A stretch of DNA of 63,989 nt, the filler included, from Stramenopiles sp. TOSAG23-6 (lineage: Eukaryota), in NCBI GenBank assembly GCA_900128565.1. It is 3 parts of 3 records of this genome, joined end to end, with 100 filler letters (N's around TTAATTAATTAA, not from the genome) between each part and the next. Parts side by side here need not be neighbours in the genome. Positions count along the whole stretch, not along the records: positions 1 to 24,307 come from LT636006.1; positions 24,408 to 48,362 come from LT636007.1; positions 48,463 to 63,989 come from LT636112.1. One strand, given 5' to 3'. Positions 14,614 through 63,989 of this stretch are shown here, in pieces. Under the pieces are notes generated by a model. That model was given only the letters and a program-made list of their open reading frames with translations, ran no database searches and was not told the origin of the DNA. Position 1 is the stretch's first letter; each line of letters opens with the position of its first letter. A program made the translations under genes and the position numbers.

Positions 14614-16376
14614 TTATTTCAAATCAGATTTTATTTTTTTCATTAATATCATAAATTCTTCTACAACTACTTTCTCGGCATAAATCATTGATTTCACATG
14701 TGACCATATACCAACATCATTTTTACTATTCATTTCATTTTTAGCAACATCAAAAACATCAAATCTTTTTTTTGCTTTTTTTGTCTTCTCAATCAAAAAC
14801 TTCCCAACCTGAAAGAGACATCTGAATAATGTATTTTGGAAAAATATTTCAAAAAAAAATCGTTAGGTACGAAATTTCGTACGAAAATAAATTCGATTTT
14901 TTTGTTAAAAAAAAAATAAAACATACACGCTGCTTCATTCTGTGGACTAATACCAATACTACTATTTTGATCTATCCTATTACCATAAGCAAGTTGGATA
15001 CTATTTTCATCTTCAAACTCAAGGGTTGACATTAGAATAACACGCAACGCACCTGTATTGTAGGAAAATATTTCAAATTTGTTTTGTTAGGTAAAAAATT
15101 TTTATAAAAAAATAAATTCGATTTTTTTGTTGAAAAAAAAATAAGACATACCTAGTGTAGTTGGCATCGCACCAAGTGACGTCACTATTAAAGGAGTTTC
15201 AGTACCAATATCAATGCCGCTTTTATAAGCTTTGAAACATCGTTGATGAAACTGAATCATATTTTGATTCTCAGAGTTATTTTTTATCTTTATTTTCTTT
15301 TCTTTTGTTTCATATACATCCAATACACGACATTTTGGTAAACGTTTTACAGCATCACCTAAACTCATTTGTAAAGAAGCTTGTGGCTGAACTATAATTT
15401 TATTCCCAATAAAGTAAGACGCAGTAAATCCATACTGAGCCAACAATTTATCATCTCCAAGCCATGATCCATAGCTAATGTAAATTTGTTCACCAACCGA
15501 AATATCAGAAATTAACTTTACTTCATAATGAGTAGTATCATTATTCGATACAATTGCATTTGGCGTATGACTGTGATTCAATAAATCAAACAAAGGAATC
15601 ATCACTCTTTCTTGATAATTGTTTTTGGTACCCAATTTCCTACCTAATTCTGAATATGTATCGAATGTACCGTCATGAAAATCAAATGATCGAGATAAAA
15701 CTAATGATAATACATATTCAAAATCATGATGAGCAGTAAAACCAATACCACTTACACCAACATCAACAGAAGTAGCCGGATTTATATAAAGTTCAAATGC
15801 CCGTTTTTCGTGTTCTTTCCTCTTCTGCAGTAGAGTATGCAAAGTAGTGCCTTTAATAACATTTAGCATCTCTAAAGACCACTTATACATATCTGACGAT
15901 TGCGGTAGACTCTGAATGTAAGTAGACAACCAATCGTGTTTTTCTTTACATAAATTCGAATTTGTATTTTTTAGTTGTTTCTTTAGGTAAAGCAAAAATC
16001 GTGCAAATGCTATAGTTTGCCTATCAAGATCACAACCCTGACTTGTATCTTCTTGGAATAATATATCACTATATACACCATCTTCATCAAAGTACGAGAG
16101 AAGAAAATCTTTCCGTATTGCAAGCTTCTTAGGAACTTTGAAAATGGAAGTACCCTTTTTAATTATTTTTGAGCTAAATACACCACGGCCCTGACCAGGA
16201 GCTTCTCTGATTTCTAAAGACTCTTCAATTACACCACCCCTTTTTAAAACTTCGTCATACATTGAAGGGAATACATTCTTAATATTGTATATATCATTAA
16301 TAACAAATGAAAACACAAAGTTCCTCAAAAGGAGAAACAAGAAAAGACCCACTTTCAACTTACTTTCGGGGTTCAT
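14614..16376 (-). CDS. SET-domain lysine methyltransferase, SETD3/Rubisco-LSMT type; 3 exons
   Basis: GQGRGVF, SRSF, MIPLFDLLNHS, GEQIYISYG, LLAQYGF motifs; spliced C-terminus ISPQNEAALFRCL. Confidence 0.88.
14829..14926 (-). mobile_element. Introner-like intron GT-AT (98 nt)
   Basis: T|GTATGT...GTACGAAATTTCGTACCTAAC...AAAATACAT|TA joins NEAA-LFRCL into ORF 14614. Confidence 0.85.
15053..15151 (-). mobile_element. Introner-like intron, canonical GT-AG member (99 nt)
   Basis: AG|GTATGT...CCTAAC...CAATACAG|GT restores TTLG-ALRV. Confidence 0.9.
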
Positions 16377-16645
16377 GTGATTTTACGGACTTGTTTTTTC
16401 TGGTACCTGGACTCTATCCACAGTAAAAATATAGCGACTAACACACCCACGAAAATTGACAATACTATTAATGTAAGCGAAGGCATTGAGATCTTAATGC
16501 GTTGTATACTGGCAAGAATGATCTACTTCGGTACCTATCTTAAATATTTGTGTTCTTTCCGATTTATTTCGATTTCGAGATTTTTTTGAGTCGAAGTCAG
16601 CCGTCAGCTTCAAAATATCACCCTATCCCTATAACCCTAACCCTA

Positions 16646-17691
16646 TTAACTCATTCGGACTCGTTCTTGACACACTGCAATATACCTCAAATTCATTCCA
16701 GATCCAGAGGACGAATTAGACCAAAATTTTATACATTGACGCAACGCATCTAGCCCTTCTAATTTTCTATCTTGAATACTATCGCGACTAAGTTCAATCA
16801 TATTTTTTGGACTTTTTTCTAAAGTTGCGATACCTGCAACAAGCAATACATCAATTAAGTGTGTATTTTGGAAAAATATTTCAAAAAAAAAAAAACTAAA
16901 ATTTGTTAGGTACAAAATTTCGTACGAAAAAAAAATCAAATTTGAAAAAAAATAAAACATACGTTTCTTTCGAGTTGATTCCGTGTAATGCATATTAATA
17001 ATCTCATCGACCCACTCCATATAATCTGAGACAGATATCGGATGCTCTATTGTACGTGTGGTTTGGTCTTCAAAATTCAATGATGTTACGCATTGCGATA
17101 CTTCATTCTCCATATCGATTGCAATATGGATTGTGAAAAAATATTTTTTTTTTACAAAAAACTAAAAAATTCGTTAGGTACAAAATTTACTATGAAAAAA
17201 ATCTAGCTAAAAATTAAATTCTGAAAACGTACATCTTGAAGATGTTTTGTAAGAGTTTTGATAGCTTTCATGTTTTTCTCTAGTAACACTCGATGTTTAT
17301 ATAGTAGGCGTTCCTTAAGACCATCAAAAAAATGCAGTGGTGTTGAAATCCCGTTCTCTTTGGTAAATGTATCATAGATACAAGGAACCCGACTTGCAAC
17401 ATTTATCAGAGATGATATAGCGTTTTCACACCGATGCTCCGTATTTAACCATTCTTCATGGAATTTCATGATGCGTACGAATATACGATTCCAGAATTTT
17501 AGAGCAGATATAATACTGCGAGAAGCTTTTGTGGGGCTAATCTGATTTTCTATATTTATTAGAGATAAATTATTGTCTTTGGTTTTTGCCGCATCACGTC
17601 TCTCTTTTTCTAAAACTCTAGCCTTTTCTCGAGCTTCCCTATTTCGTAGGAGCTTACGTTGGTTTGCAGTATATCCATGATTTCCTTCCAT
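16646..17691 (-). CDS. C1orf109/AIRIM-like protein; 3 exons
   Basis: FDGLKERLLYK and SVSDYMEWVDEI..HYTESTRKKHLI resemble C1orf109 motifs FPDLKERLRRK and SVADMLEWLQDI (recognised from memory). Confidence 0.65.
16861..16962 (-). mobile_element. Introner-like intron GT-AC (102 nt, in frame, no stop)
   Basis: AC|GTATGT...GTACCTAAC...AAAATACAC|AC. Confidence 0.8.
17126..17232 (-). mobile_element. Introner-like intron GT-AT (107 nt)
   Basis: GAT|GTACGT...GTACCTAAC...CACAATCCAT|ATT restores HLQD-IAIDME. Confidence 0.85.
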
Positions 17692-17987
17692 GGAACTTCA
17701 AACAATATTTAAGGCAATTCTTCTATAACAATCACGGGCGCCTATACAATATATTGAAAATAACCTTTTAATATCCTCAAGTCGTGTGTGGAATGAGTGA
17801 GAATAAAAAAGGTATAGCGCTTCGAACGGCTTCGTTTCTGTCAGGATTTTTTGATGTCCGAGGATTTCGTGTTTTGCTACCGGACCGACGGTTACCCAGT
17901 GAGCGTAAAGAAGATGACATAATTCTTTTACAAAAAAGAAAAGATGAAAAAAGGCCATCTTAATGGCATGTCGATTCCAGCGAATCA

Positions 17988-20900
17988 ATGAAAAAGAACA
18001 AAGGTGGGAATCGCCCCAGGGGGTTCATCTCATATGATCCTTTTGCTGATATGGCTGGCAGAAGCGGCTCTACAAAAGTAAAAGAGGTTCAAGGAGAAAT
18101 TTCTGATCATGTGAAAGCTTTGACCGATCCAGTTATTGAAGTTGGAACACCTCCAGAACCTCCGACAAAAGGTTCAGAAATTCAATCGAATCCCAATTCG
18201 AAACCTGAATCAAATCAGGAAGACATTACTCCTAACCAAAATAGTCAAACAAGTCAAAAAGTGCCTCAGTATAATATAGAAACTGTAGGTGAAGAAGACT
18301 TTGAAGATGTCTTTGACTCGGATGATTCAACAAGGTCAATGACACCCAGAGGATCACCAATCCCACGAGGCAGACGAAATAGAAAACTGTTTTATGAAGG
18401 CCGAGAACTTGTACAATTAGAACTAAAAGCTGCAGAACAGACACAAGTTTTGAAAGAGAAACGGCGAATTTATGAAGAAAAACAAAAAAACAATTCTCTT
18501 GCGCTTGTACGTTTTATATGAATTTCTAATTTAATTATTTTTTTCATACGAAATTTCGTACCTAACAATTTTTTTAAGATTTTTGTTGAAATATTTTTTC
18601 ACAATACTTCATCGTCGATACGTGCAACGCTTAAAAGAAATTGACCAAGAGGATAAAGAATCCATTAGAGCCCAAATAGAAAATACAAAACTACTTACTC
18701 AAAAAAGGGAACTCCAATTAGCTCAAAGAAAAGTCGATTTATTACACGAAGAAAATCTTCGTAAGCATGTACGTTTTCGAAGTTGAATTTCGAATTTATT
18801 TTTTTTTCGTAAATTGTTTTTGTATCTAACGATTTTTTTTCTTTACTAAAAAACAATTTCACAATGCATGACCGTGATATTGAGCTCGAGAGGGTAGTTG
18901 CAAGAAAACTTCAATTAGAAGAAATTCAGGAACGGAAAAGGCAAATGTATGCTTTATTTTTTTTCAATTTCGATTTGTTTTCGTACTAAATTTTGTACCT
19001 AACGATTTTTCTTTTGAAATATTTTTTCAAAGTACATATCGGAGCAAGTTCGATTACGCAAGCTACTTTTAGAAGAAGTTCAAGAAGAGAGAGGTCGAAG
19101 GGCAAATGCGAAAGCAAACCGTTTGCAGGAAGTTCTTGCAAAAGCAGAATATGTGCGTTTCCTTCATGCATTTTAAATTGTTTTTTCGTACTACATTTTG
19201 TACCTAACGAATTGTTTTAAACCAAACAAAAAAAAATATTTTTTCGCAATACATCTTCAAAAGGAAATTAACTCTGGCGCTTTTGATGCCAAAGACAGAG
19301 AAACCTTCGCTGCTGAGTTTCTGAAAGAAGATACAGATAATGATAATGTGTTTCATTTAACCGAAGAAATTTCTGGAGCACGACATAAAGAGTTTATGAA
19401 GCGGCAAAGACAGAATGAGGAAGAAATGACCCAGCTAACAAATAAACGTGAAATTTTAGATGTTGAACGTGCAAAGTTATTGGATAAAAAACAAAAATTA
19501 GTATCAATACAAAACAAAGGAATTGAGTTTATGGCAGATATTGAAAGAGGGCTGAAATCAGAGTCTGATTTATCTCCAAGACCATTGAATGATCCCAAAT
19601 CAATCGATGAAGTTGAGATGAAAGATAACAAAACTGTGAAAGAATTTGCTGAAGACCTGAGAACAAATCGACCTTATAGACAAAAGAAAATACAATCTTT
19701 GAAAGCAGACCTTTTTGTTTTAGAAGCTGAACGTATTCGAGCAAAACCGAAGTTGCATATGCTTCCAGAATACGATGGAAGACTCGGAATTTCTTCTTAT
19801 CCACCAGAAAGTCAAGAAATGGTAAAATGGCTTCGTGAGATAACTGTGGAGCTTTGTGATGAGATAATGAATGCATTTTATCTTCGAGAAATAACATTTG
19901 AAAATGTTGAAAAAGAGCGAATCCTTTATGAAGAAAGTAAAGCTCTATTAGTAAAGCGTTATTCGGCACGAGCTACTGATCGTGCTATTGATGAAATCAC
20001 CGCGACTGCGGTTTTGGATGTTGTCCAACAGCAAATTCGAGAAGTGCATAAAGAATTTTCGTATTTGTATGAAGTTGCAACACAGATGAGTAATCAGCTT
20101 CTTCTGAACACAGTACTGGAACGGCGATCTGTCACGAGCATACTACATATAGAAAATACAAAGGACAACACAAAAATGTCAGATTTTACTAAAGCATGGA
20201 AAGCTAGAATATTAGAATTCTGTAGAAAACAACAAGTAAAGAATCGTGATAAGCGTGATCAATCAGGAGAAAAAGTTCGCCTTGATCCTCCTTACCAAAA
20301 TTCTCCTCTAATTCCGTCAAATAAAGGAAAAGCTGTTGTGCTTCTTGTTGCAGAAAAGGGTAAAAAGGCTCTTGAAAAAGAAGAGAAACCAGAGAAAAAA
20401 GGTAGAAGTTTCTTTATGAAACGAACTGGAGATTCAGATTCTTCTGAAGATTCTGACGATGAGAACAATGCATTAATTAAGGAGAAAGATGTCACTTACT
20501 CGAAACTCCACGACTCGGATACCATAAAAGTTTGGGTTCCTAATTATGAATCTGAAAAGGGCTTAAATAATACCAGTAAAGAAGCTGCACACAAAGAAGA
20601 AAAAAAATTCTTCAAGAATGTGCATTACACGTCAGCTTCATTTTCAACACCTAAGGAATATGGTGCTGTAACATGTTGCTCATTAGGATATCACAGACAG
20701 ACCCTTCTTGCTGTTGGTACCGCATCTGGTGTTGTTCTTATATATCGCGTTAGTTTGCCACCTGCAAGACTGCTACATGTTCTCGAACATAAAAGAGTTA
20801 TTCCTAAAAAGAAGACATTAGATATGAAAACTTTTGATCCATCGATGGTTCACCGCAAGAAGAAGAAAAAAGCAAAAAAGTGTGCAGCGGATAGTATAAG

Positions 20901-22426
20901 TTGGAGTTTCGATAGTATGCAATTATCAGTAGTACATGTTGATGGGCAAGTGAGAGTATGGTCACTGGCCCATCACTCTACAGAGAAAGCTGAAACAAAA
21001 GAAGAGATGCAAAATGCTCATGGTGTAGTGGATGATGCTGAGGATGTCAAACCCCAGATACACTCGTACCCATCGATAGAATTATCAAATATTGACTTTC
21101 AACGCTGCGCGGTAAATAATAATATCGGTTTAAATAAAAAAGGCAAAAAGACTAAAAAGTCAAAACAAAAAGAGAAAGAGGAACTCGTATCTTTAGAGCC
21201 GATATTATCATGTTTTCACCCTGCAGCGACTTTTCTAGGTTTCCAGACGTCAATAATGTGTGCGGTACGACATGGACATGTAATAAAATGGAATGGTTTA
21301 GATGAAACTGAAACTACGCCTCTTTTATTCAATAATATCTCACCATATGAGCCACTCTACAGAGGTGAAGAAGCGAATGACATTAAAGAACGGCTCGCAC
21401 AGGAAGTCAAACGGGAATTCTTTCAGTGTCATAGGAATACAATTATTTTAATGAATTTTTTGGAAAATACAACATCTACAATGGTCACTGTTGACAAAGC
21501 TGGACTAATTTGTGTATGGAATTATAATACCGATAGCTTTTCTGGATACGGATGGTTTGTACCTTTTAAACAATATCAATTAATTTTACCTATAACAGAT
21601 TTGAATACAGATATTAAAAAAAGCAAGACAAAAAGGAATAAAAAAGGAAAACAAAAGATTGATATTTTATCTGCAAGATTAACAATATCAGGAAATGAAA
21701 TTATTATGATAGCCAAGACTCCACAATCCCATGGAGGCAACAGAATACTTATTTTTGATCCTGTGAAAGGACAATTTTTGAGGTCACAGATAAAGCTTTC
21801 ATCATCCATCAATTCTCATTATTTTACAGTTTCACCAGTGCTTGATGCCACTTGTTCAGACTATGTATATTTATATAACAAGGGCAAATATTTGGTTTAT
21901 TCACTGGCCACAATGAAAAAGGTAAAAGAAGTAACGTTGTTAGCTGATACAGGAAAAGAAAGGCAGACAACACAGCCATATATTACACGAAATCATAGTC
22001 AAATAGTCATTTGTGTAAAAGGTACAACAGACGTCAAAATCAGAACAATTGTCGATACAAATTCATTTGAGAACCCACCAACAATATTTTCTAAATTCGA
22101 GCCCCAGAAAGATAAAAAGGAGGGATATTGTATGTTATCATTTTCCCACACTTTTTTAAAAATTTATTTATTTTGTACCAAATATTGTATCTAACAAATT
22201 TCAAACGTAAAACATATTTCTTCACATTACTTCTAGTTTTGAATCCGATGATGAAGAATATCGTGAAAACTTAAAATTTAGACCGCGCTTTCACTCAGCT
22301 TCTTCCGAATATAGAGTCCGTCGCTTTATGTATGACATCTCAATTTTTAACGTAAAGAAAGAAATTAGAAATATAGTGTCTGATATTGTCGCTGAAGCAA
22401 CAGAGAGAGCAAAAACACTTTGGTAA
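17988..22426 (+). CDS. Large coiled-coil + WD40-repeat protein; 6 exons
   Basis: One continuous frame after removing 5 family introns; WD-like segments LAVGTASGVVLIY, VHVDGQVRVWSL, VTVDKAGLICVWNY. Confidence 0.75.
18507..18609 (+). mobile_element. Introner-like intron GT-TT (103 nt)
   Basis: CTT|GTACGT...GTACCTAAC...CACAATACTT|CAT; an in-frame CAT 3 nt further is an alternative end. Confidence 0.8.
18769..18869 (+). mobile_element. Introner-like intron GT-AT (101 nt)
   Basis: CAT|GTACGT...TCTAAC...CACAATGCAT|GAC. Confidence 0.8.
18947..19037 (+). mobile_element. Introner-like intron GT-AT (91 nt)
   Basis: AT|GTATGC...GTACCTAAC...AAAGTACAT|A. Confidence 0.85.
19153..19254 (+). mobile_element. 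Introner-like intron GT-AT (102 nt)
   Basis: TAT|GTGCGT...GTACCTAAC...GCAATACAT|CTT. Confidence 0.85.
22130..22232 (+). mobile_element. Introner-like intron GT-TT (103 nt)
   Basis: ATT|GTATGT...TCTAAC...CACATTACTT|CT; the nearby AG (22235-22236) gives a frameshift and early stop. Confidence 0.75.
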
Positions 22427-22429
22427 ATC

Positions 22430-22509
22430 ATTCGTTTTTTTTGTTAGGTACAAAGTTTACTACGAAAAACAAATAAATTTGAAATTCATATATTTGCCAA
22501 ATTGTATAC
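22430..22509 (-). mobile_element. Orphan or degenerate family copy between convergent genes
   Basis: Minus strand reads GTATAC...CGTAGTAAACTTTGTACCTAAC; no clear 3' terminus. Confidence 0.55.
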
Positions 22510-22724
22510 TTTGATATTTTTTTATCGAGTTCTCATAAAGTATTTTAATCATATAGTATTTTCTTACAATTTAGCTCAATAGACAAGCACAAGAAGATTC
22601 GAAATGTAGACTGTGGAGTAATCGATTTTTGTGGAAATAAAGTAGAACGAGAACGGAATGAGTAACGAACGAAACCAGATATTAAAAAAAAAAAAATTGT
22701 TAATTTACTCAAAAAAAAATGTTT

Positions 22725-23552
22725 TTATTTCTTACAATTTTTACGTCCGGATGAGTGAACTTTCGTTATGTATGCAGAATGCAAGGCAGCTATAAAATCA
22801 TCATCATTTGCTAATTCTAAAAGAGTAGCTTTAAGCTTTGTCTTACTCAGTACCAACTTTTCCTTATCTATAGAAGAGTCCGGAATATTATCAACTACAT
22901 TTCCGGCAAAATTCGCCACATTTGTCAGGCTCTTCTTCTTTGCCTTCTTCTTCTTTTCTGAAACAACCACATGATCTATTTTAATTGGAGCATTTGCAGC
23001 TGCAACAGCAGCACTTTCTTTTAAGACACGCTCACGTTCTTTTTCAAAAACTTTTAAATCCGCTTTTGTTAATGGCGTCCCCTGTTGCAGCGACGTGACT
23101 AATTTTTGCAATAAAGCTGTAACAACTTGACGTTCACCAGCATCATGAAACCAAAATGCATCTATCGCTGCGTTGTCTTTATTTGGGCGAACCATTAAAA
23201 AATCGCCGTTGGTTTCTAGTTCTAACTCCGCAGTAACGTCTTTACCCATGTCATCCGGATTATTCCGATTCAAAATAACCAACATATATTCAGGATTANN
23301 NNNNNTCACAATATACATGGTTCCTTCTACGTCCATGGAACGCCACTTCATTTCATCTAATTCAAACGCATATGCTGCAACGTAACTTGAATGTCCAAGA
23401 ACAGAAATTATTTTCTTATCAACACGTTGCAGCGCTTTGAGATTCGCGGCTTTCGCTTTTTTCTGGTTATGCTTTAATTTCAAATCTTTTCCTCGTTGGC
23501 TCGCATCAGCTGTAGTATTAGCTGGATCAACTTGTCCACTATTATTAGTCAT
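22725..23552 (-). CDS. DCP1: mRNA decapping enzyme subunit Dcp1 (EVH1 domain + C-terminal trimerisation helix)
   Basis: NLKALQRVD..I..V..HSSYVAAYAF....WRSMDVEGTMYIV...LVILNR...FWFHD; C-terminal LKATLLELANDDDFIAALHSAY. Confidence 0.9.
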   Translation of the reverse strand: MTNNSGQVDPANTTADASQRGKDLKLKHNQKKAKAANLKALQRVDKKIISVLGHSSYVAAYAFELDEMKWRSMDVEGTMYIVXXXNPEYMLVILNRNNPDDMGKDVTAELELETNGDFLMVRPNKDNAAIDAFWFHDAGERQVVTALLQKLVTSLQQGTPLTKADLKVFEKERERVLKESAAVAAANAPIKIDHVVVSEKKKKAKKKSLTNVANFAGNVVDNIPDSSIDKEKLVLSKTKLKATLLELANDDDFIAALHSAYITKVHSSGRKNCKK

Positions 23553-24307: not shown

Positions 24308-24407
24308 NNNNNNNNNNNNNNNNNNNNNNNNNNNNNNNNNNNNNNNNNNNNTTAATTAATTAANNNNNNNNNNNNNNNNNNNNNNNNNNNNNNNNNNNNN
24401 NNNNNNN
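24308..24407. other. Artificial contig linker N-TTAATTAATTAA-N
   Basis: 100-nt N run containing a six-frame stop cassette. Confidence 0.95.
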
Positions 24408-24462
24408 CGTACGAAATTTCGTACCTAACGATTTTTTTTTGAAATATTTTTCCAAAATACAT
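24408..24462 (+). mobile_element. 3' half of introner-like intron (acceptor AT) at contig start
   Basis: CGTACGAAATTTCGTACCTAAC...GAAATATTTTTCCAAAATACAT|CAT. Confidence 0.85.
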
Positions 24463-27400
24463 CATATACAAAGGTGGAAAGCTTTGCGATTAACAAATCT
24501 AAAGTCATCTATTGAGTCTCACGCACGTGCACAGATCTCATACCATCAAAGTTTAAAGAAACAATTTGAATGTTTATTAAATGATATGGAAAATAAAAAT
24601 TTTGGAGGATCCAAAAATGACCAAGCTAAACCTTTGATGCAAAATTCAATAGCTCATTGTAAGCAATATACTTCTACTGATACTGTATTCTCTGAAACTG
24701 TTACAGAGAAAGACATACCACAAAAATGTATGTCAAATGATAGGCTCAACCAAAAATTGGAACTGTCATATAACCCTAACCCTAACCCTATAGAACACAT
24801 TTCATCGAATGACAATGGACAAAATCCATCGAATCCATCGAATTCGATTACTAATAAATCTAGTGATTTTGTTGCTGTTTTTGCCATTTGTGTGGTCGAA
24901 GTGAGGCATATTTTTCGTGAAATAAGGAACCCATATATTGTTATTTCAATGGGTGGAATTGAGCATCGCGCATCATGTACAAGAATGTATGTTTTTATGA
25001 TTCAATTCATTTTTTTTTAAATTTAGTATGAAATTTTGTACCTAACAAAAAGTTAATTGTTTTTGAAATATGTTTTATCAATATATGTTTAATGATCGAG
25101 CAGAATTTGGAGAAACATTTTGTTTTACTATTTATTCAGATACTGAGATGTGTAGAGTTGCGTTACATGTATGTTCTATTTTTTTTTCAAATTCGATTTT
25201 TTTGCGTACGAAATTTTGTACCTAACGATTTTTTTTTTTTGTGAAATATTTTTCCAAAAGATATGATGAAAGCAAAGGATCAATAGGTTCAATTCTTATT
25301 AGTCAAAAAGATTTGAATAATCACAAAACGACATGTGGCGAATGGTGGTGGATTTTCCATGGTTTATATAGTGGTGAAGTTAGAATACGTTCTCATATGA
25401 ACTTTGGTAGAGCTACGCTAAATAAAAAAGATGGTCATTTATCATTACATGATTTTGGTAAATTGTCAGTAGAAGGAAATGATCGAAATTCGGGTGCACG
25501 AAATCTGAGAAACAAAGTCAGTAGTGATAGTAGTAGACGATACACTGGTATAAATTCTTTACATGTTTATAATCAACAAAATGCAGGGTTATTACCAGCT
25601 AATGGAACTTTTCTCCATTCTCCTTCGTATTTAAAGAATAATAGAAATGTTATTTCAGGATGGATGGATAATAATAATATTGATGATAATATCGATAGAA
25701 GTAGTGAAAGTTCAAGTAATAGAAAATCAAATATTGATAGAATAGAAGAGAACCATAACCCTCATATTATCATAGGCAGTCCATATAATAGAAAATTAAC
25801 TGAAGGGAACTGTGATAAAAATGACTCTATATATGATAATTTAGGATTTCAAATTCCTCCCCACTGTCTCGGACTTGCTCATTTTATAGGCCTTGAGCAA
25901 TGTAGAGAAATTCAACAATGTTCCCGATGGATTCAATTGAGCGGTGGCTATGAAAATGGCGTTTTTTCTATGCTCGAGCAACACGCAACACCTGTTGATG
26001 CATCTCAATTCGCATCACCTGTAGATGTATCCCGACCTTGCCGTGTACTCATGTATGTTTTTTTTTTTTTCAATTTCTAAATGTTTTTTTTTTGGTTTTC
26101 GTACGAAATTTCGTACCTAACAAAAAAATCAAAAAAAAAATATTTTTTATACTACATATCGTCGGAATTAGGAGCTTTATTGTTTGGTGGAATTCCAACT
26201 ACATTTCGATCGGAGGCCTATATGTGTCTTAGTGGCGCTGCTGCCATGAAATTACGACAACCAAAAGGTTATTATCAACAGCTTTATGACGGATCGATTG
26301 ATCCAATCGTTCGCAGGCAAATAGAGGACGATCTTGTGAGAACATTTGCTAAACAGCAAACTCGTATTAATGTGGTGAAAATCGATACAACTATAAAAAG
26401 AGTATCGAGTGAAAGCATTTTACCTATTACAAAAAACGATAGTACTGTTCATTTGAATATTTCAGATGAAACCACAACTAAACAGGAACCAGAGGCTTTA
26501 GCTGCCCTTCGTCGTATTTTATTGGCACATTCATTCAGGAATTCTGTTGTTGGATACTGTCAAAGTTTGAATCATGTTGCGGGTTTTTTACTTTGTCTTG
26601 GTACTATTCATGAAGAATGTGTTTTCTGGATACTTTGCGCTGTGACAGAACGTTTATGTTGTGATTATTACGTACCTTCAATGTCTGGTTTACATCGGGA
26701 TCTTCGAGTTCTTCGCGATTTAATGCAGAAACGGCAACCAGAATTAATGAGACATATGGATAGATTAGGTGTACCACTTGAAATGTTAGCATCTGGTTCA
26801 TTACTGAGTCACTTTGTGTTACATCTTCCGACCCATACTGTGCTTCGTATGTTGGACATAGTTTTATGGCGTGGATCTCCCATGCTTCTTTTGACGGTTT
26901 TGGCGTTGATGCAAATGTCGCGTATGGATCTGCTTTCTGCACGTACTGCTGGGGAAGTCGCAACACGATGGAAATCATGCCAGGAGCGTTGTTACGATGC
27001 AGAAGGTTTAGTATCTCGCATTCGAGCAGAATGGATTGAACTTGGTGAAGGGACAATAGAAGAATTGCAAGCGAAACATGCAGCCGCGGCAAGATCTGAA
27101 GCTGAAGCATCACTACATAGTGCAGCTTTACGCCGTTTTGTTGGTGATGACACAACTTCAGGTGATGGCTTACGACAGAGTGTGCTTGACCAAGCGCATT
27201 TCACACAATTATATGGACGTTTTGTTGAAGCTGCCGCAGCACCCGCAGGAAGATCTGCTGATCATCGTAGGTTAGATACATCTAGCTTTCGCGCATTGAT
27301 GTTGCGAACTTTCTTTGGTCTTCCTGTGAATAGCAGCCGGAGAACACTTGATGCTCTTTTTGAAGCTTTTGATGCCAATGGCGATGGAGAGTTGGATTTA

Positions 27401-28026
27401 CAAGAATTTATTACTGGAATGGGTATGATCAGTCCAACTGCAACAATTGAAGAAAAACTTCGTTTTTGTTTTAATTGTTATGACGCAGAGAAATCAGGGC
27501 AAATAGAAAAGCAATCACTGGCTGGTCTGTTACATACTATTGTTGCTGTTGCTATGCTTATGCTTGGACATCAAAATACACTATCAAAAGATGTAGTTGC
27601 AACGTTACTTGATCATGTATGTTTTATTTTTTTTCAAATTCGATTTTTTTTCATACGAAATTTTGTACCTAACGATTTGTTTTGAAATATTTTTCCAAAA
27701 TACATTGTCCGAGTTCTTCGCTGTCTTTTGTAGAGTTCTGTGAATATTTATACGCACAACCTCTTGTATCTGAGTGGTTGAATCTTCAGCAGCGTTTGAA
27801 TGACTCAGGCATTATTATTAATTCTGGTATGAAAGAGATGAAAAATATGTCTGGGACAATATCCAGTAATACGACGAATAATCCAATTGACGAATATGAG
27901 CAAATAGAATATAATAATTATGGAAATACTGAAATAAATGAAAATGAACATCATAAATTTGGGGATTCGTATGCTGAAAAAATGTGGATAGACTGGCCAC
28001 ATCATGATGGACGAAGTGGGCATTAA
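24463..28026 (+). CDS. Rab-GAP (TBC domain) protein with a C2-like domain and EF-hands; 5'-partial, at least 5 exons
   Basis: GGIPTTFRSEAY, QIEDDLVRTF, VGYCQSLN (TBC fingers); DANGDGELDLQEF EF-hand; C2-like NPYIVI..EFGETF..VALHD built across family introns. Confidence 0.88.
24987..25086 (+). mobile_element. Introner-like intron GT-AT (100 nt)
   Basis: AT|GTATGT...GTACCTAAC...TCAATATAT|G. Confidence 0.85.
25169..25264 (+). mobile_element. Introner-like intron GT-AT (96 nt)
   Basis: CAT|GTATGT...GTACCTAAC...CAAAAGATAT|GAT; the AG 4 nt upstream is out of frame. Confidence 0.85.
26053..26157 (+). mobile_element. Introner-like intron GT-AT (105 nt)
   Basis: AT|GTATGT...GTACGAAATTTCGTACCTAAC...ACTACAT|A. 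Confidence 0.85.
27617..27705 (+). mobile_element. Introner-like intron GT-AT (89 nt)
   Basis: CAT|GTATGT...GTACCTAAC...CCAAAATACAT|TGT. Confidence 0.88.
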
Positions 28027-29624: not shown

Positions 29625-29685
29625 TTTTTTTTTTAAGTACAAAATTTCGTACAAAAAAAAAACACGAAATAAAAAAATATTTCAA
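29625..29685 (-). mobile_element. Orphan remnant of the family core in an intergenic region
   Basis: Minus strand reads TTTTGTACGAAATTTTGTACTTAA. Confidence 0.5.
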
Positions 29686-48301: not shown

Positions 48302-48362
48302 GTATCTTTTATTTTTTTTCAAATTCGATTTTTTTTTCGTACGAAATTTTGTACCTAACGAA
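48302..48362 (+). mobile_element. 5' half of introner-like intron at contig end
   Basis: CAT|GTATCT...CGTACGAAATTTTGTACCTAAC followed by Ns. Confidence 0.85.
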
Positions 48363-48462: not shown

Positions 48463-48530
48463 TTTTTTTTTCGTACGAAATTTCGTACCTAACGATTGTT
48501 TTTGTAATTTCGTGTTTTTTCACAATACAT
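48463..48530 (+). mobile_element. 3' half of introner-like intron (acceptor AT) at contig start
   Basis: CGTACGAAATTTCGTACCTAAC...CACAATACAT|GT. Confidence 0.85.
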
Positions 48531-49780: not shown

Positions 49781-50810
49781 ATGGAAGCAGATGATGGTAA
49801 AGCAATAGTGCAGGTGCTTGCAGATGTGTTACAAAAACTGGTTGCAGCCAATGATAATGTACGTGTATCTCTCGATATTAATAAATCCACACACTTTTCT
49901 TTTCGTCAATTTGTTTTTCCCCTTTTATTTATTAAAACTCTTTTCACAACTTATTATACAATATATAACAAACAAAATTATTCTTAAAGTACAAGACCAT
50001 TTTATATACTTTTTATATCAGCAAGGAGATACGGGGAAAGTCACAAAGTTCCATGCTCTACGCCTTCCAAGTATTAATATTTCAGACTATTTACGCCGAA
50101 TTGCTAAATATGCATCGTGTAGCGCCGAGTGTTTCGTATTAGCGTTGGTCTATATTGATCGATTAATTCAACGCAATAACTTCATTATTTGTTCCTTAAA
50201 CATACATCGTGTAATTATCACAAGTGTTATGTTGGCCGCAAAATTTTTTGATGACCATTATTATAACAACGCATATTATGCAAAAATTGGCGGAGTGCCG
50301 TGTGATGAGATGAATTCATTAGAAATTGAATATTTGTTTCTGATTAATTTTTCATTATTTGTATCTCCTTCAAGCTACTCCAAGTACTTTAATGAATTAT
50401 GTAGTCATGCCAATATATCAGCTTCGCCAAAACCAAATGAATGGCAATTAGCTGGATTAAATACGAATAATACGAAGAAAATAACTCAGGTAAGGAATAA
50501 TGGTACGAATGCTACTCAGGTCGCGATTGATTCAAATAATTCAAATGGTTTATTTGTAAAAGGTTCAAATTGTACTAATAATTCAACTAGTAATAATCAG
50601 AACCCACATTATTTATCATACAATGAAAATTCACAGAGTTATGAACCAAATAATGAGAACAAAAATCAGCGTTGGAATGAAAAAAATGAATTTTCAACGT
50701 CGAATTTTTCTTCTGACTCTAACCCAAACCCTAGATCAAACCAGTTTAATAATGTTTGTCATATGCCTGTAGCGATGTCAAGCAATATGAATAACGCTGA
50801 ATTTATGTGA
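49781..50810 (+). CDS. PHO80-like cyclin (cyclin P/U); 2 exons
   Basis: [57 protein letters not shown]. Confidence 0.92.
49859..50021 (+). other. Conventional GT-AG spliceosomal intron (163 nt), not of the repeat family
   Basis: AAT|GTACGT...TTTTTATATCAG|CAA, phase 0; lacks the palindromic core. Confidence 0.85.
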
Positions 50811-54560: not shown

Positions 54561-56162
54561 TTAGAAATTTGAAAATAAATCAAGTTTTGCATTTCTACTC
54601 GTAGTTGTATACTTCTTACTACCTTTATGATAATGATTCCGTCTAGATTGAATTATATCTCCCTGTAAACGAAATTTTCTTCTTGAAGATTTTTGAGCTG
54701 CAGAAAGTGTTATATTTGTTTTGTTTTGAATAAAATCAGTCGGTTTTTTCATACTATAATCTATACTATTTTGAGTATTCATATTTTTATCTATTGATAA
54801 AGTATTTTGACTATCAATATTTTTACCCATTGATAAAGCATTATGTAAACGTTCAAATGATTTTCCACCTGGCTTTGTTATTGTTTGTTTTATTGGTTCA
54901 AATGAATTTTCACCTGGTTTTGTTATTGCTTGTTTTATTGGTTTCATTGTTTGTACTACCGGTACCATTGGCGTTGACTTATTTATTGTAATTGATGTTT
55001 CTTTGGCTTTATTTTGATGAAGATTTTTTTTTCTTTTCTGTTCATATTCGCGTAGTAATGCCAAAGTGTTTATTTCATTATCATTTGTTTTTTTTTTATT
55101 ATTTTCTATTGTACTTTTATTTTCCATTCTACTTTTTTCAGTGCTCGTGTACGTTTTACCATCTGCACTATTTTGTTTATCGTTTATTGCACGTTTTTTA
55201 CGTTGTTTTTCTTTTCTTTCTCTTTTTTCTTTTCTATCAAATCCAAACCTAATTTTTTCAATAACTTTTCGAGCTAATTCATTCGCATCTTTATCAATAA
55301 TTGTATTATGCAACATGGTTTCTCTCGAAAATAACGTTTTGTGTAATTCTTTCTTTTGCCTATCAAAAGTAGAATTCACATCTATTTTTGATTTGTCTAA
55401 TATAGATGTTGTACCTTTTTTTGAGTTTTGTACAAAAATTTTCTTTGTATCTTTTAATGTTGAAGTCCACTGTGACGTCACTCGATGACCACAATTTGAA
55501 CAAAACTCATTATATTTTGCATTTATTCCACATGTATTGCATACACGTCTTAGTACGTATTCAGATTCCACGGGATCAGACATCAATCCATTTTTTTCAT
55601 CCGTTGGTATTATAATACCTCCAAATGGGTTTGGACCTAAATTTTTCAATGGGACAAAATTGAGCCAAGTTCCTCTCTTTACTCGTAGATTTGGATTAAT
55701 TAGCATTCCTTTGATATGCCAGTTTTTCATTTTATCATTACTAAATGGACCATACTGTATGTTATCGTTGTCTAAATAATACCATGTTGTAAGCAAAGTA
55801 TCAAAGTAGTAACCTAAGCCAAAAGACCCACAAGAAAAATAGTAATTTTTAATGCTTTTGACGAAAAAAGTACAGGGTGTAAATGTAAGGTTTAGTGTGC
55901 GAAGAAACACAATTGAAATCGGCCGAGCTGTATGATTTTTAATCATTTCGAAAATGTTAGAGTCATTAAAGTTTATTCCATAAATATCGGATAACTCTAT
56001 CTCACCAATACCGACAACGTAATCACCAACAAAAACACCAACTTGTTTCGCTCCACTTGTGGTGTAATCAACCACACCATTACAAAAACTAAAACCCAGT
56101 TTTTGTGTGGTAAATGATAACGGTATTCTAATTTGATTGGTCGACATCTGTGATTTATTCAT
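54561..56162 (-). CDS. GYF-domain protein with a PDZ-like N-terminus and zinc ribbon
   Basis: WYYLD....QYGPFS...MKNW...G; CNTCG......FCSNCG. Confidence 0.75.
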   Translation of the reverse strand: MNKSQMSTNQIRIPLSFTTQKLGFSFCNGVVDYTTSGAKQVGVFVGDYVVGIGEIELSDIYGINFNDSNIFEMIKNHTARPISIVFLRTLNLTFTPCTFFVKSIKNYYFSCGSFGLGYYFDTLLTTWYYLDNDNIQYGPFSNDKMKNWHIKGMLINPNLRVKRGTWLNFVPLKNLGPNPFGGIIIPTDEKNGLMSDPVESEYVLRRVCNTCGINAKYNEFCSNCGHRVTSQWTSTLKDTKKIFVQNSKKGTTSILDKSKIDVNSTFDRQKKELHKTLFSRETMLHNTIIDKDANELARKVIEKIRFGFDRKEKRERKEKQRKKRAINDKQNSADGKTYTSTEKSRMENKSTIENNKKKTNDNEINTLALLREYEQKRKKNLHQNKAKETSITINKSTPMVPVVQTMKPIKQAITKPGENSFEPIKQTITKPGGKSFERLHNALSMGKNIDSQNTLSIDKNMNTQNSIDYSMKKPTDFIQNKTNITLSAAQKSSRRKFRLQGDIIQSRRNHYHKGSKKYTTTSRNAKLDLFSNF

Positions 56163-56400
56163 TATTTATATAAACAACATTGATATCACATTTCTTTTCA
56201 TTGACTCTGTTTAGTTTTGTTCGATACTTAGTATAGTTAGTACACCACATTTTAACTTACAGTTTTTTTCAGTTACGAGATGTTACCCGGTACCAACGAA
56301 GTTATATTATTATTCATTATCATTCATTATTATTATCCCACAAAACTTTGAGTTCGATCATCATCAATAATCGAGGCTTACAGTCTTCCAACAAATTTGT

Positions 56401-57477
56401 GTGTACTATTGTTGCACAATTACAAAGTACTATAGCATGATTATGTTTCAATGTCATAAGCCGTGTAGGTATCTCATTAGTAGTAGATCTATTGAACGTT
56501 CCAAGATTTCATTTCACGTATTGTATAGATCACTGTCTATGTATAGATCACTGTCTACAAAAAAAGGACGGGAAGTTCCAGAAGAAACATTTGGCTTAGT
56601 AGGAAATGAAACTAGTGAAAATTGGAAGCTACGAATACGGAACCACGATATGAATATCAACCAAAGTGATTACAACAAACTTCCTAAAACACCAATTTCA
56701 CTTCTATTAGATAATTTACGATCTGCTTTTAATGTTGGATCTATTTTTCGTACTGCTGATACAGCGAGGCTTCGTGAAGTTATTACCACAGGTTTCACTT
56801 GTCACCCTCCACATAATAAATTAGAAAAGACAGCTCTTGGCACTGCCGATGTTGTTCCACACAGACATTTTGATAAGACGTGTACTGCTGTAAAAAAATT
56901 ACAAAGTGAAGGAATATTTTGTATGGCTTTGGAAACTACATCTTCTAGTATAGATTATTGTAGTATTGACTACACAAAATATACTAATAGTAATAGTAGT
57001 GAAGTAGTCCTAGATAAAACGAATTGTTTTGAGAAAGATTCCAACCCTAACCCTAACCCTAACCCTAATTCCACTCAATACAATGGCATTGCTTTAATTG
57101 TAGGCAATGAAGTCAAAGGTGTTGACCCAGACGTTTTGAAAATTTGTGATAAAATAATAGAAATTCCAATGTTAGGATTCAAAAATTCTTTAAACGTTGC
57201 TTCATGTGTAAGTATAGTTACATTTGAGATACTTCGACAATTCCAACACAGTCAAAATTCAAATGAGATAAAGCACGATTTATCACCCGTTGCTCTTGTT
57301 GGAAAATGCGACTCAACAATTGATAGTAAGAATCTTGGAAAAGTAGTAAGTATACCATTTATGATAACTAAAGCAATGCGAGAGAAAATGTTTATTTTAG
57401 GTTATTCATCAAAAGAAATTAGTGCTTTGAAACCTTTAGAAGTTCATGATATTCTAAAAGCAAATGAAAAAAAATAA
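56401..57477 (+). CDS. SpoU/TrmH-family RNA 2'-O-methyltransferase (start probably ATG 56437)
   Basis: LLDNLRSAFNVGSIFRTAD, IVGNEVKGV, IEIPMLGFKNSLNVA. Confidence 0.9.
   Translation: MYYCCTITKYYSMIMFQCHKPCRYLISSRSIERSKISFHVLYRSLSMYRSLSTKKGREVPEETFGLVGNETSENWKLRIRNHDMNINQSDYNKLPKTPISLLLDNLRSAFNVGSIFRTADTARLREVITTGFTCHPPHNKLEKTALGTADVVPHRHFDKTCTAVKKLQSEGIFCMALETTSSSIDYCSIDYTKYTNSNSSEVVLDKTNCFEKDSNPNPNPNPNSTQYNGIALIVGNEVKGVDPDVLKICDKIIEIPMLGFKNSLNVASCVSIVTFEILRQFQHSQNSNEIKHDLSPVALVGKCDSTIDSKNLGKVVSIPFMITKAMREKMFILGYSSKEISALKPLEVHDILKANEKK
57043..57068 (+). repeat. Interstitial telomere-like (CCCTAA)4 within CDS, encoding NPNPNPN
   Basis: aaccctaaccctaaccctaaccctaa. Confidence 0.85.
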
Positions 57478-60592: not shown

Positions 60593-60779
60593 TTAAATTT
60601 TATAACATCACCATTCAATTTGATGATAAATAATAAGAGAGATTGTTCGATTTTAATATAATTTTTTTATTTTCCAAAACGCGAGACAATATTCCGAAAT
60701 AAGCCCTAACCCTAGTGCAGTGCTACTTATGCGATGATTTAAGCTAAAATATTTCCTATTTTTATTTTCTTTATTTTTT

Positions 60780-62057: not shown

Positions 62058-62483
62058 CTATATATATATAAAGCATAAATTTATTTTTTGGTAAAGACGA
62101 CAAGCATAAAGTTTTTACTCAAGCATCATAAGGCAATGGCGAATTTTTTGATAGAGACGGTTTGTCGAGATGTTCTCCAAGTTCATTTACATTCAAACGT
62201 TTTTGTTGTTCTGGTGTGTATACACTCATTACCCATGAGCCCATATTTTTTTCTCCTAGCGGTTTCTCACTATAATGTCAGGATTATTTGGTTACAAAAA
62301 AATGAGAAATATGACATATTACAGTACGATGTATGAGTAGTATGGAATAGTTTTAAACTTACAAATTTTCATTCCATGTCCACTCAGGTCTATAATGTAG
62401 AAGGATTTTTTTGATGTAGTCGATGAGAAATACGAAACATGGAAATGCGAAGTACAAATAGTATGGGATACTCTCAAAACTTA

Positions 62484-62585
62484 CCCAGTCATTCCTATCG
62501 GCTCTTCAACAGTATTTTGTCCAACTCTGGCATCTGCAACACCAAGAACAGCTAAAGACAGCAGTGTAGCGAGTCTAAGTTTCAT
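62484..62585 (-). CDS. Possible first exon encoding a signal peptide
   Basis: MKLRLATLLSLAVLGVADA followed by a GTAAGT donor. Confidence 0.4.
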
Positions 62586-62833
62586 CTTTGTGGATTTCGG
62601 TTTCTTTTTCAGTTTTAGTTGTTGAGCAGTTGTTGTTGGTGAAGGAAGAAAGAAACTTCTTGGAGAAGAAATTTCAGAAATTTCGAGCAAAATTTAAAAA
62701 TGACGTCATCGTCATTTCGAACAGATTCTTCGTTCAAGGATGCTTCGTTCGTGTACTCCAGTAATAGGTAAAGGTTCATCATTTTCAATTTCAAATTACA
62801 TTTATAACCCTAAATGTACAATTGAATAGCAAA

Positions 62834-63989
62834 ATGCTTTTTATACTTGTACTATTTTGTTTATGCAATGCTGCTTTTGCGGACTCATTAGACACTCCCT
62901 CAGTTTCTTGTTCACCCTCTATTCAGTTTGAGAACCCAACAAACGGTGACATTTTTTTTCACGGTAAGGTTGAATTCAGAGTACACTTGACGTGTGACAC
63001 TAACACACGGCTATGTCTACTCATAGATAAGAACCCTGACATTATGAAAACATCTCCAGGTACAGGTGATTATTTTTGTTTAGACACAAAGGATAATTTT
63101 GAATTTTCTGGGTTAAATGTTGGAACGCACATGATTGATGCCATTCTATTACCAACAGAACCAACAGACCCAATAGAATACAGTGAAATAAACTCACCAA
63201 AACCAGTTGCATATGATGTTGTGACTTTTGATATTATACCTTTACCAGGAGGTGACTATTTTGATCCAGATCCTTCCAAAGTACCACCAAGATCTCTTAT
63301 TCAAGACAAACAACTTGATTCTTTGTTACTTATTCAAGACAAACAAAACCCTAACCCTGATTCTGTGTTACTACACGATAAAAAAAACTCAAAAACCTCA
63401 GATACAATTTCAATTGGACTTTTAAGTTTATCTGACTCCTTTGGTGGACAAGAACGGTTATTTCTTAATCAAGCAAAACTACTCCCTCTCATGTACGTTT
63501 TATTTTTTTCAATTTCGGATTTTTTTTTTGTTCGTAGGAAATTTCGTACCTAACAAAAAAATTCAAAAAAAAAATATTTTTTCACAATATCTTCATCAAA
63601 CAGAAGGTAAGAGTGAAAACCCTACTAACCCTCATAATAAAAATAGAAATCGTAAGCCAATATATGAAGTTGTATTCATCACTGCTCCAAAACTGGATGA
63701 AACATTATTAAGCAACTTTTCAACATCTGTACGTTTTTTACAGATGAATTTTAAATTTAAGATTTTTTTTCGTAGTAAATTTTGTACCTAACGATTTTTT
63801 TTTACCGAAAAAAAAAAATAAAATAAAAAAATATTTTTGTACAATGTAGAACGTTTCATGGGAAAAAGCTGTAATGGATCCACTATTTTGGACAGAGGAT
63901 AATTTTTTTTGGAATAATTCACATCATGAGTTACATGTATGTTTTATTTTTTTTCAAATTCGAATTTTTTTTTCGTACGAAATTTTGTA
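62834..63989 (+). CDS. Secreted/lumenal protein, probable GT4 glycosyltransferase N-terminal part; 3'-partial
   Basis: Signal peptide; Ig-like IQFENPTNGD..GLNVGTH; FGGQER motif; frame restored across family introns. Confidence 0.6.
63493..63592 (+). mobile_element. Introner-like intron, apparent GT-CT (100 nt)
   Basis: AT|GTACGT...CGTACCTAAC...CACAATATCT|T; end inferred from frame and the 15-nt spacing. Confidence 0.7.
63729..63849 (+). mobile_element. Introner-like intron, GT-AG member (121 nt)
   Basis: TCT|GTACGT...GTACCTAAC...ACAATGTAG|AAC. Confidence 0.8.
63937..63989 (+). mobile_element. 5' part of introner-like intron, truncated by window end
   Basis: CAT|GTATGT...CGTACGAAATTTTGTA. 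Confidence 0.85.

Follow-up and report, generated by a model that had tools for sequence, protein, structure and literature searches.

What sets the 3′ end of an intron that lacks a terminal AG? The question is raised by a 63,989-nt stretch of DNA (hereafter the window) from Stramenopiles sp. TOSAG23-6 (assembly GCA_900128565.1), in which repeats of about 100 nt interrupt open reading frames (ORFs), begin like spliceosomal introns, and in most copies end in a dinucleotide other than AG. An initial annotation had proposed that the acceptor is chosen by its distance from a conserved ATAT box near the 3′ end, and had named a length-constrained transposon end as the alternative. That alternative turns out to be the better reading, and it can be sharpened to an element end plus a 2-bp target duplication: the repeats are probably a short non-coding mobile element that acts as a spliceosomal intron (an introner), with the 3′ cut falling at the end of the element plus a 2-nt duplicate of its target.

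A family of short repeats within coding sequence

On inspection of positions 14500-19500, each ~100-nt unit was found to consist of GTAYGTTTT at its start, a 16-nt palindrome (GTACGAAATTTCGTAC) lying directly before a CTAAC motif that resembles a branch site, a homopolymer stretch of A/T that varies in length, and a conserved 3′ module, AAATATTTTTYCAMAATAC, followed by two further bases. A profile (nhmmer) built from 10 copies matched the family throughout the window, and the palindrome core alone occurs 22 times there against an expectation of 0.02. The family comprises 28 complete copies of 89 to 121 nt, about one per 2 kb of the window, and 4 partial copies cut by gaps or by the window end (Table 1); three of the complete copies (3030-3122, 3228-3343, and 3532-3628) lie beyond the range of the initial annotation. 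All 28 sit within ORF chains in the sense orientation, are spread over 10 such chains whose Pfam domains differ or are absent, and use all three codon phases (12, 8, and 8 copies). A metagenome scan with the 20-nt palindrome/CTAAC core recovered one locus (L001) holding one copy, which ends in ..CACAATACAT after an exon ending in CAT; two frames stay open across this copy, which is consistent with the junction rule given below and not decisive for it.

The 5′ end is nearly invariant, with G at the first position in 28/28 copies, T at the second in 27/28, and the hexamer GTAYGT beginning at the element's first base except in two diverged copies, 33917-34025 (GTTTGT) and 47002-47093 (GCATTT). 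GTAYGT matches the yeast-type donor. A CTAAC- or TTAAC-type motif is found in 27/28 copies and, by its similarity to the yeast-type branch motif TACTAAC, is a putative branch site. At the 3′ end, positions -21 to -1 form one conserved block that is indel-free in most copies, and conservation drops abruptly at +1. Contigs derived from other copies stop resembling the window at precisely these boundaries: the initial G (16962) on one side and the final one or two bases (16862, 14829/14828) on the other. Intron and repeated unit therefore coincide, and the ATAT box is a part of the unit's 3′ end.

A two-nucleotide direct repeat at the intron borders

The last two bases of the intron are identical to the last two bases of the upstream exon in 19/28 copies, a number that none of 20,000 shuffles of the pairing reached. 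The terminal dinucleotide is AT in 19/28 copies and TT, AG, AC, AA, or CT in the others; among the nine non-AT ends, five match the exon (AG/AG, AC/AC, and TT/TT three times). Because intron position -3 stays C where exon position -3 differs, the repeat is limited to 2 nt, with ..AC forming the end of the element proper. Upstream exons end in AT in 16/28 copies, against a background of ~10% for this dinucleotide, with C at exon -3 in 15/28 and G at exon +1 in 13/28, which suggests an insertion preference for a palindromic C-AT-G target. The direct repeat looks like a 2-bp target-site duplication, mostly of AT. If the cuts fall at the element's GT and behind the second repeat copy, exactly the inserted sequence is removed.

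Wherever the repeat is perfect, an identical mRNA would result if both cuts lay 2 nt further to the left, giving introns of the form NN+GTAYGT...ATAC (mostly AT-AC) that could be of U2 or U12 type and would leave the right-hand copy of the repeat in the mRNA. With this shift 16/28 copies would start with AT and 21/28 would end with AC, as in U12-type AT-AC introns, and CCTAAC is like the U12 branch motif (TCCTTAAC). Such a placement is nevertheless unlikely, since it makes the 5′ end variable (AT, GT, TT, AC, AG, TC, TG, CT) and leaves the invariant GTAYGT stranded 2 nt inside the intron. The U12-type 5′ motif [AG]TATCCTT is absent, and the distance from branch site to intron end, at 30-58 nt, is too long for the U12 range of ~10-26 nt. 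The shift also breaks down at imperfect repeats. One of these belongs to copy 31118-31215, in the window's E2 acyltransferase gene, where only an intron starting with GT gives a Gly at the split codon, residue 216 of Protein Data Bank (PDB) chain 2ihw_A and presumably the site of a conserved KGEV.

A second alternative dispenses with target duplication altogether: the elements would have arisen by reverse splicing of an intron RNA with a fixed ..ACAT end, and the matches to the exon would reflect a preference for inserting after AT. The prevalence of AT ends, even at imperfect repeats, is in keeping with this idea, as are the near absence of terminal inverted repeats and the genic, sense placement of every complete copy, but selection against antisense copies, which could not be spliced, would produce the sense bias just as well. 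We consider reverse splicing quite unlikely, as the non-AT ends co-vary with the exon in the way described above, to a degree that the shuffles did not reproduce and that random mutation of a fixed end would not yield, and fragments of the element also occur outside ORFs (Table 1).

Placement of junctions that lack AG

With all copies spliced out, a junction placed two nucleotides after the terminal A[C/T] gives a long ORF across the junction in 28/28 copies. A shift of 1 or 2 nt breaks the frame or, at a handful of short exons, leaves open no more than an alternative, shorter frame. By this rule 25/28 copies end without AG and 3/28 with it. An upstream AG is bypassed in 7 copies, and in 20 of the 25 non-AG copies the 30 nt downstream either contain no AG or have their first AG in another frame.

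The reading frame fixes a junction modulo 3 only, and the exact placement comes from homologues, which by gapless homology fix the junctions of six copies (four through the protein P0121 and two through 2ihw_A). P0121, the only database relative of the exon at 19255-22128 (47% identity), aligns with the spliced translation without a gap over residues 154-393 and thereby covers four junctions: 18609, which ends in TT, and 18869, 19037, and 19254, which end in AT. At 19254, use of the in-frame AG 9 nt downstream would remove LQK from the conserved LQKEINSGAFD. The gene for a branched-chain E2 acyltransferase can be numbered against 2ihw_A, where exon 1 extends to residue 157, codon 158 is split, and exon 2 resumes at 159; exon 2 in turn extends to residue 215, codon 216 is split, and exon 3 resumes at 217. 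This numbering means that exactly 99 nt and 98 nt are removed, both ending in ..ACAT. For the junction of copy 26053-26157, which lies in the RabGAP gene, 8,021 proteins matched at E <= 0.001, and among the 150 listed, five whose match starts within the exon's first 11 residues were aligned. Four of these alignments start either at the split codon or 1-3 residues beyond it, and the remaining one ~11 residues later; none crosses the junction, and the comparison is uninformative about it. No homologues of the exon at 34026-34802 were found.

The non-AG ends are thus backed by the reading frame (28/28), by gapless homologues at six junctions, and by the partial RNA contig evidence presented below. 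Around the cut, a pyrimidine stands at -3 in 28/28 copies, A at -2 in 24/28, T at -1 in 23/28, and at least one of A(-2) and T(-1) in 28/28, a pattern that resembles a relaxed YAG. Three simple positioning devices were considered and rejected: scanning for the first AG after the branch site, in view of the bypassed AGs; scanning for the first Y-A-T, in view of the TAT present within the ATAT box itself; and end-to-end RNA pairing, which is too weak (an inverted run of 0-4 nt, with paired termini in 3/8 folds).

The constant spacing from the ATAT box

The regularity that gave rise to the ruler idea is real. All 13 junction coordinates named in the initial annotation were recovered as the last intron base with the dinucleotides given there, and the distance from ATAT to the junction, reported as 15 nt, is exactly that in 22/28 complete copies. 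The exceptions it listed, a distance of 14 nt at 26157 and 35297 and some copies without a box, also hold, the box being absent in three copies (3532-3628, 18769-18869, and 28261-28359); one copy (31118-31215) has a spacing of 16 nt, or of 14 from an overlapping second ATAT. The distance from CTAAC is variable, as had been claimed, with the branch-type A lying 30-58 nt from the junction in the 27 copies that have CTAAC or TTAAC. In all of these measurements junctions were set from the terminal motif and then checked by reading frame. The spacing is constant far beyond chance, yet the copies are relatives, and what they share is a spacing inherited in a 21-nt block, not 22 independent events.

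A true molecular ruler would be a protein or small nuclear ribonucleoprotein bound to the AAATATTT box, directing the second splicing step to a point 15 nt downstream whatever the sequence there. It would account for the exact spacing in 22/25 box-bearing copies and for the place of the box (-19 to -16) among the best conserved positions, but the block from -21 to -1 is conserved equally throughout and the box is not special within it. The check that the initial annotation had itself suggested, on copies with indels in the spacer, goes against the ruler in 3/3 cases: the junction shifts along with the terminal ..TAC+2, and a cut at ATAT+15 loses the frame. In 26053-26157, where a 7-nt ATACTAC replaces the 8-nt CACAATAC, the ORF extents are 54/1776 nt for a cut at ATAT+15 and 1448/1777 nt for the terminal rule; in 35297-35387, with one T fewer in the T run, they are 537/33 nt and 537/3492 nt; and in 31118-31215, with one extra base, they are 45/141 nt and 1279/140 nt, the junction at 31215 being in addition exact by its gapless match to 2ihw_A. 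The three copies without a box still end 2 nt after ..A(T/C)(A/G)C, and they share the ..CACAATACAT end, or a one-base variant of it, with the L001 copy and with the subtype at 48463-48530, which likewise have no ATAT box. A ruler is therefore very unlikely. The 15 nt is the length of a conserved, normally indel-free 3′ module plus the 2-nt duplication, and not a measuring device. What stands of the earlier inference is that the acceptor is not found by scanning for AG, does not depend on the distance from CTAAC, and keeps a constant position with respect to the 3′ end of the element; measurement from ATAT is not supported.

RNA and DNA contigs

Three contigs from a poly(A) RNA run (X8) bear on splicing. 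In record 25 (164 nt), letters 1-97 correspond to 3130-3226 and the remaining 67 letters fit 3343-3409, which would amount to a skip of 116 nt. This equals the length of intron 3228-3343, a G common to both sides leaving the cut uncertain by one position. The match of record 30 starts at 18607 with letter 47 of the contig, 3 nt before the junction, which is the length of the shared CTT; it fits a junction at 18609 or 3 nt earlier and not one 3 nt later, and the earlier option is unlikely because it would add a codon against the gapless P0121 alignment. The match of record 28 ends 2 nt inside intron 15053-15151, where that of a spliced transcript would stop, since exon 2 also starts with GT. 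DNA contigs from an independent seawater metagenome (X3 records 1, 4, 5, and 8), by comparison, enter or cross four introns (Table 1). The DNA and RNA contigs come from different samples and show neither strand nor level, and the introns appear to be present in DNA and absent from at least some RNA. Excision of the elements from DNA, in the manner of ciliate internal eliminated sequences, is very unlikely: precise removal bounded by a short direct repeat is typical of those sequences, and contigs that show neither strand nor level accord with it, but independent metagenome DNA contigs keep four introns and one poly(A) RNA contig appears to be without one, the copies lie in sense only with a GTAYGT donor and in nearly all cases a CTAAC-type motif, and the standard code reads all ORFs. 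Nuclear dimorphism is not known to be a feature of stramenopiles.

Sampled words of the window were found in three metatranscriptomes at a level of 8-9%. Contigs matched to the window bring thousands of cross-matches from other copies, and their joint table consists mostly of copy-to-copy chimeras and is unusable. Contig depth at the elements is hundred- to thousand-fold above the flanks in both DNA and RNA runs, a figure that gives no copy number and says only that the element is highly repeated. Over element bins in 3000-22999, depth reaches hundreds to thousands in RNA runs X6 and X7 versus 0-3 on exons, and ~1,000-14,000 in the DNA run versus ~8 on single-copy sequence. The element sequence abundant in the RNA libraries could be unspliced precursor, stable excised intron, or contaminating DNA.

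Observations that weigh against an inserted element

Several observations count against the reading as a mobile element with a target duplication. The sample is small, covering the 64-kb window and the one copy from L001. The direct repeat is imperfect in 9/28 copies, and in 5 of these 9 the intron still ends in AT, so part of the AT signal could be the element's own. One copy (3030-3122) has neither CTAAC nor TTAAC. Terminal inverted repeats are limited to GTA(T)...(A)TAC, with a perfect run of 0-4 nt, no transposase partner is seen within the 64 kb, and no empty site was found; DNA transposition is accordingly a putative mechanism. Minimum-energy RNA folds pair the termini in 3/8 cases, with z-scores of -0.2 to -2.75. 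The RNA support consists of three contigs, not reads, from the one run; the second piece of X8 record 25 was reconstructed from contig-end figures, which place the end of just one X8 contig at 3409, and the alignment available for X8 record 30 covers letter 47 onward. As to the imperfect repeats, they tend toward the more diverged copies, judged by profile E-values that are biased in that ten copies seeded the profile, and in the copy at 14829-14926 the mismatch is a synonymous exon change; this fits decay after insertion.

A possible route of insertion and splicing

If the repeats are introners, the element would supply its own 5′ splice site (GTAYGT), a branch-like site (CTAAC), and the 3′ module. 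Insertion would duplicate two target bases, preferably the AT of C-AT-G, with the second copy standing right after the element's terminal AC. Removal of the element together with one copy of the duplicate would then restore the original frame, with the 3′ cut falling 2 nt past the element's end at any dinucleotide. Excision would be carried out by the major spliceosome, U1 and U6 reading GTAYGT and U2 reading CTAAC, while exon ligation would be placed by the 3′ module, that is by a U-rich run from -16 to -11, CAMAAUAC, and two bases, with no AG and with the requirement on the last intron bases relaxed. That the spliceosome ligates at a position set by an intron-borne 3′ module, AG being no longer needed and any copied target dinucleotide serving as long as a pyrimidine at -3 and A(-2) or U(-1) are kept, is a tentative proposal, which we hold less firmly than the mobile origin of the introns. 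Cryo-electron microscopy of spliceosomes shows A(-2) in contact with the branch adenosine and G(-1) paired with G(+1); that the latter pair might be replaced by a U(-1)-G(+1) wobble is speculation.

Comparison with known introner systems

The known stramenopile and green-algal introner families obey GT/GC-AG, and would thus form working introns only where the target or the element supplies AG. The family described here has two marks of introners, namely many near-identical copies at the intron positions of unrelated genes and precise removal that restores frame and protein, as well as the flanking target-site duplication (19/28) of miniature inverted-repeat transposable elements (MITEs). Its boundaries depart from the canonical GY-AG that published introner screens require, with GT at the 5′ end in 27/28 copies and AG at the 3′ end in 3/28. 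Those screens check for familiar splice sites, and would tend to miss a family without AG.

The closest parallels lie in introners that bring their own donor and co-opt an acceptor from the duplication (Chrysochromulina type), which are known, but with AG. In the introners of PMC9860276 (2022), as here, a short multi-copy element is the intron and brings the 5′ splice site, the 3′ boundary ends the second duplicate, and removal of the element with one copy leaves the mRNA length unchanged; the duplication there is 4 bp and supplies a canonical AG, whereas here it is 2 bp, mostly AT, and non-AG in 25/28 copies. Aureococcus and Pelagomonas (bioRxiv 10.1101/2021.10.25.465678; PMC11282704) are likewise stramenopiles with short intron-forming repeats in an intron-poor compact genome. 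Their elements are ~210 bp long with clear terminal inverted repeats, in contrast to ~100 nt and 0-4 nt here, and the Pelagomonas acceptor is AG "in all cases" (bioRxiv 10.1101/2021.10.25.465678), in contrast to the non-AG ends here.

Non-canonical ends are known from three further systems. The introner elements of Amoebophrya (PMC7789003) share non-canonical boundaries, direct repeats over the exon/intron borders, and a transposon-like spread. They have inverted repeats of 8-20 nt forming a hairpin and direct repeats of 3-5 nt, where the present copies have 0-4 nt and 2 nt and weak folds, and they show no consistent dinucleotides at either end, with no U1 small nuclear RNA found in that organism (PMC7789003); here the 5′ end keeps GTAYGT, nearly every copy has a CTAAC-type motif, and freedom is limited to the 3′ dinucleotide. 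In Fritillaria borealis, MITE-derived AG-AC and AG-AT introns (Henriet et al. 2019, via the review PMC11282704) also have border duplications and are removed by the spliceosome despite their non-GT-AG ends, but their 5′ end is AG and the host is an animal. The present family, from a protist, has a canonical 5′ end and departs from the norm at the 3′ end only. In the nonconventional introns of Euglena (PMC12501133) a short spacer of constant length, counted from an internal motif (..CH'G N5-6 before R), defines the junction, and AG does not. Those introns require pairing motifs of the CAG/CTG type both at +4..+6 and close to their 3′ end, with machinery given as unknown, whereas the present copies have spliceosomal-looking signals, no conserved pairing of their ends, and YGT (TGT or CGT) at +4..+6, in place of the signature 5'-N3CDG .. 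CH'G N5-6 before R.

A literature search gave no description of this element family, the supplementary family tables of Gozashti 2022/2025, where it might be listed, being outside its coverage. In the text covered, the word "introns" has 0 hits in the paper on single-cell genomes of uncultured stramenopiles (PMC5778133), and neither "intron" nor "splice" occurs in the one on Incisomonas (PMC12614181). Transposon-derived introns are themselves known; what is new here is the combination of a canonical donor and a branch-type motif with an acceptor dinucleotide that is an arbitrary copy of the target.

The host and other features of the window

The window is AT-rich (GC content 0.28-0.40) and crowded with long ORFs on both strands, 27 of them of at least 250 amino acids, all readable by the standard code. 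Eukaryotic domains among them include SET, RabGAP-TBC with EF hands, ankyrin, and a class I Met-tRNA synthetase. The Met-tRNA synthetase ORF is 90% identical to the EukProt protein GSMAST32.ASY1.ANO1.1742.1, the next matches being oomycetes and unnamed marine sequences at 44-49%. By this likeness the host is probably a heterotrophic stramenopile in or near the MAST-3 group, the group being taken from the EukProt label. An Rfam scan of the whole window returned no family. No tRNA was found in the window.

Beyond the complete copies, truncated or rearranged fragments of the element lie outside ORFs at three places (Table 1), which indicates that insertions are not confined to coding sequence. 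A 30-nt piece from the palindrome region lies antisense in the plus-strand ORF 47075-48358, where it is read through as ..IRNSLGTKFGTDF.., and may be the remnant of an antisense insertion kept in frame. Insertion density is uneven: the uninterrupted ORF at 4711-14568 (3285 amino acids) contains zero copies, and neighbouring genes contain 2-5 each. The two gaps each consist of two 44-N runs around a TTAATTAATTAA linker and adjoin element copies, the repeat evidently breaking the assembly; the half-copies at 48302-48362 and 48463-48530 may be parts of different introns.

A candidate ordinary short intron outside the element family (GTAAGT..TACTAAC..AAACAG) lies upstream of the ORF at 54561-56165, and if it is real, conventional GT-AG introns coexist with the non-AG element family. 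A telomere-like motif, AACCCTAACCCTA, has 10 occurrences (<=1 mismatch) against 0.02 expected; some are intergenic (e.g., between divergent genes at ~16.6 kb) and others lie within ORFs, where they encode NPNPNP. AAACCCTAA-type motifs occur downstream of the gene at L001. The AACCCTAACCCTA motif may act, like a telobox, as a promoter or terminator element. The ORF at 41037-42068 contains an internal tandem duplication, in which a long identical segment (..AGAAGCAGTGCTCTTACGAACTAACGAGGCAACCCTAAAATTTTTGATTCAACATAAGTGTATCATG..) recurs in two close stretches.

Table 1. Element copies and other features of the window. Unless stated otherwise, copies are delimited by the junction defined from the 3′ module and by the reading frame across that junction; "end" is the terminal dinucleotide of the intron.
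Feature	Coordinates	Strand	End	Remarks
Copy	3030-3122	-	AT	No CTAAC; ATAT+15; in frame
Copy	3228-3343	-	AT	ATAT+15; RNA contig X8 record 25 fits a 116-nt skip (inferred from piece lengths)
Copy	3532-3628	-	AT	No ATAT box; kept in DNA contig (X3 record 1 starts inside)
Copy	14829-14926	-	AT	Exon ends GT (imperfect repeat); loose ends of other copies stop at 14828/14829
Copy	15053-15151	-	AG	Exon ends AG; X8 record 28 stops 2 nt into intron
Copy	16861-16962	-	AC	Exon ends AC; cross-copy likeness stops at 16862 and 16962
Copy	17126-17232	-	AT	
Copy	18507-18609	+	TT	Exon ends CTT; gapless P0121 alignment; X8 record 30; kept in DNA contig (X3 record 4 enters intron)
Copy	18769-18869	+	AT	No ATAT box; P0121 alignment
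Copy	18947-19037	+	AT	AG 5 nt upstream bypassed; P0121 alignment
Copy	19153-19254	+	AT	In-frame AG 9 nt downstream unused; LQKEINSGAFD kept in homologue; kept in X3 DNA contig
Copy	22130-22232	+	TT	Exon ends TT; kept in DNA contig (X3 record 8 spans whole copy)
3′ part of copy at gap	24408-24462	+	AT	ATAT+15; junction by motif only
Copy	24987-25086	+	AT	
Copy	25169-25264	+	AT	
Copy	26053-26157	+	AT	Spacer 14 nt (1-nt deletion)
Copy	27617-27705	+	AT	
Copy	28261-28359	-	AT	No ATAT box; exon ends TC
Copy	28518-28618	-	AA	Exon ends GT
Copy	30846-30944	+	AT	AG 2 nt downstream left unused; 2ihw_A residues 157, 158, 159 across junction
Copy	31118-31215	+	AT	Spacer 16 nt (1-nt insertion); 2ihw_A residues 215, 216, 217 across junction
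Copy	32980-33076	-	AT	
Copy	33380-33475	-	AT	Exon ends GT
Diverged copy	33917-34025	-	AT	GTTTGT start
Copy	34805-34896	-	AT	
Copy	35297-35387	-	TT	Spacer 14 nt (1-nt deletion in T run)
Diverged copy	47002-47093	+	AG	GCATTT start; exon ends AT
5′ part of copy cut by gap	48302-48362	+		
3′ part of copy after gap	48463-48530	+		Box-less subtype (..TTTCGTGTTTTTTCACAATACAT)
Copy	63493-63592	+	CT	Exon ends AT; phase chain to next intron fits only this junction
Copy	63729-63849	+	AG	Exon ends CT; longest branch-to-end distance (58)
5′ part of copy cut by window end	63937-63989	+		
Element fragment outside ORFs	22435-22490	-		
Element fragment outside ORFs	29627-29664	-		
Element fragment outside ORFs	40854-40901	+		
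Antisense element piece in ORF	48027-48056	-		30 nt
Copy-free ORF	4711-14568	+		
Gap	24308-24407			
Gap	48363-48462			
Candidate ordinary intron	~56204-56260	-		
Internal tandem duplication	41300-41480	-		
AACCCTAACCCTA sites	4466-4478, 16633-16645, 24772-24790, 50721-50733, 57043-57067, 60702-60714, 63347-63359			Also in the L001 intergenic region

Implications

Bursts of intron gain are at present best explained by introners. Should read-level RNA confirm the junctions described here, the choice of the 3′ splice site would be isolated as a single relaxed step, more cleanly than in Amoebophrya, Fritillaria, or Euglena, in which the donor or both ends depart from the norm, and AG-independent exon ligation would become testable with minigenes. 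Genomes of this kind will be mis-annotated by gene finders and introner screens for which AG is mandatory, and the elements also break assemblies, as the two gaps adjoining copies in the window illustrate. If the account is true, a donor, a branch site, and a positional acceptor carried by the element would make almost any 2-bp coding target a silent insertion site, which would explain the very high density of about one copy per 2 kb.

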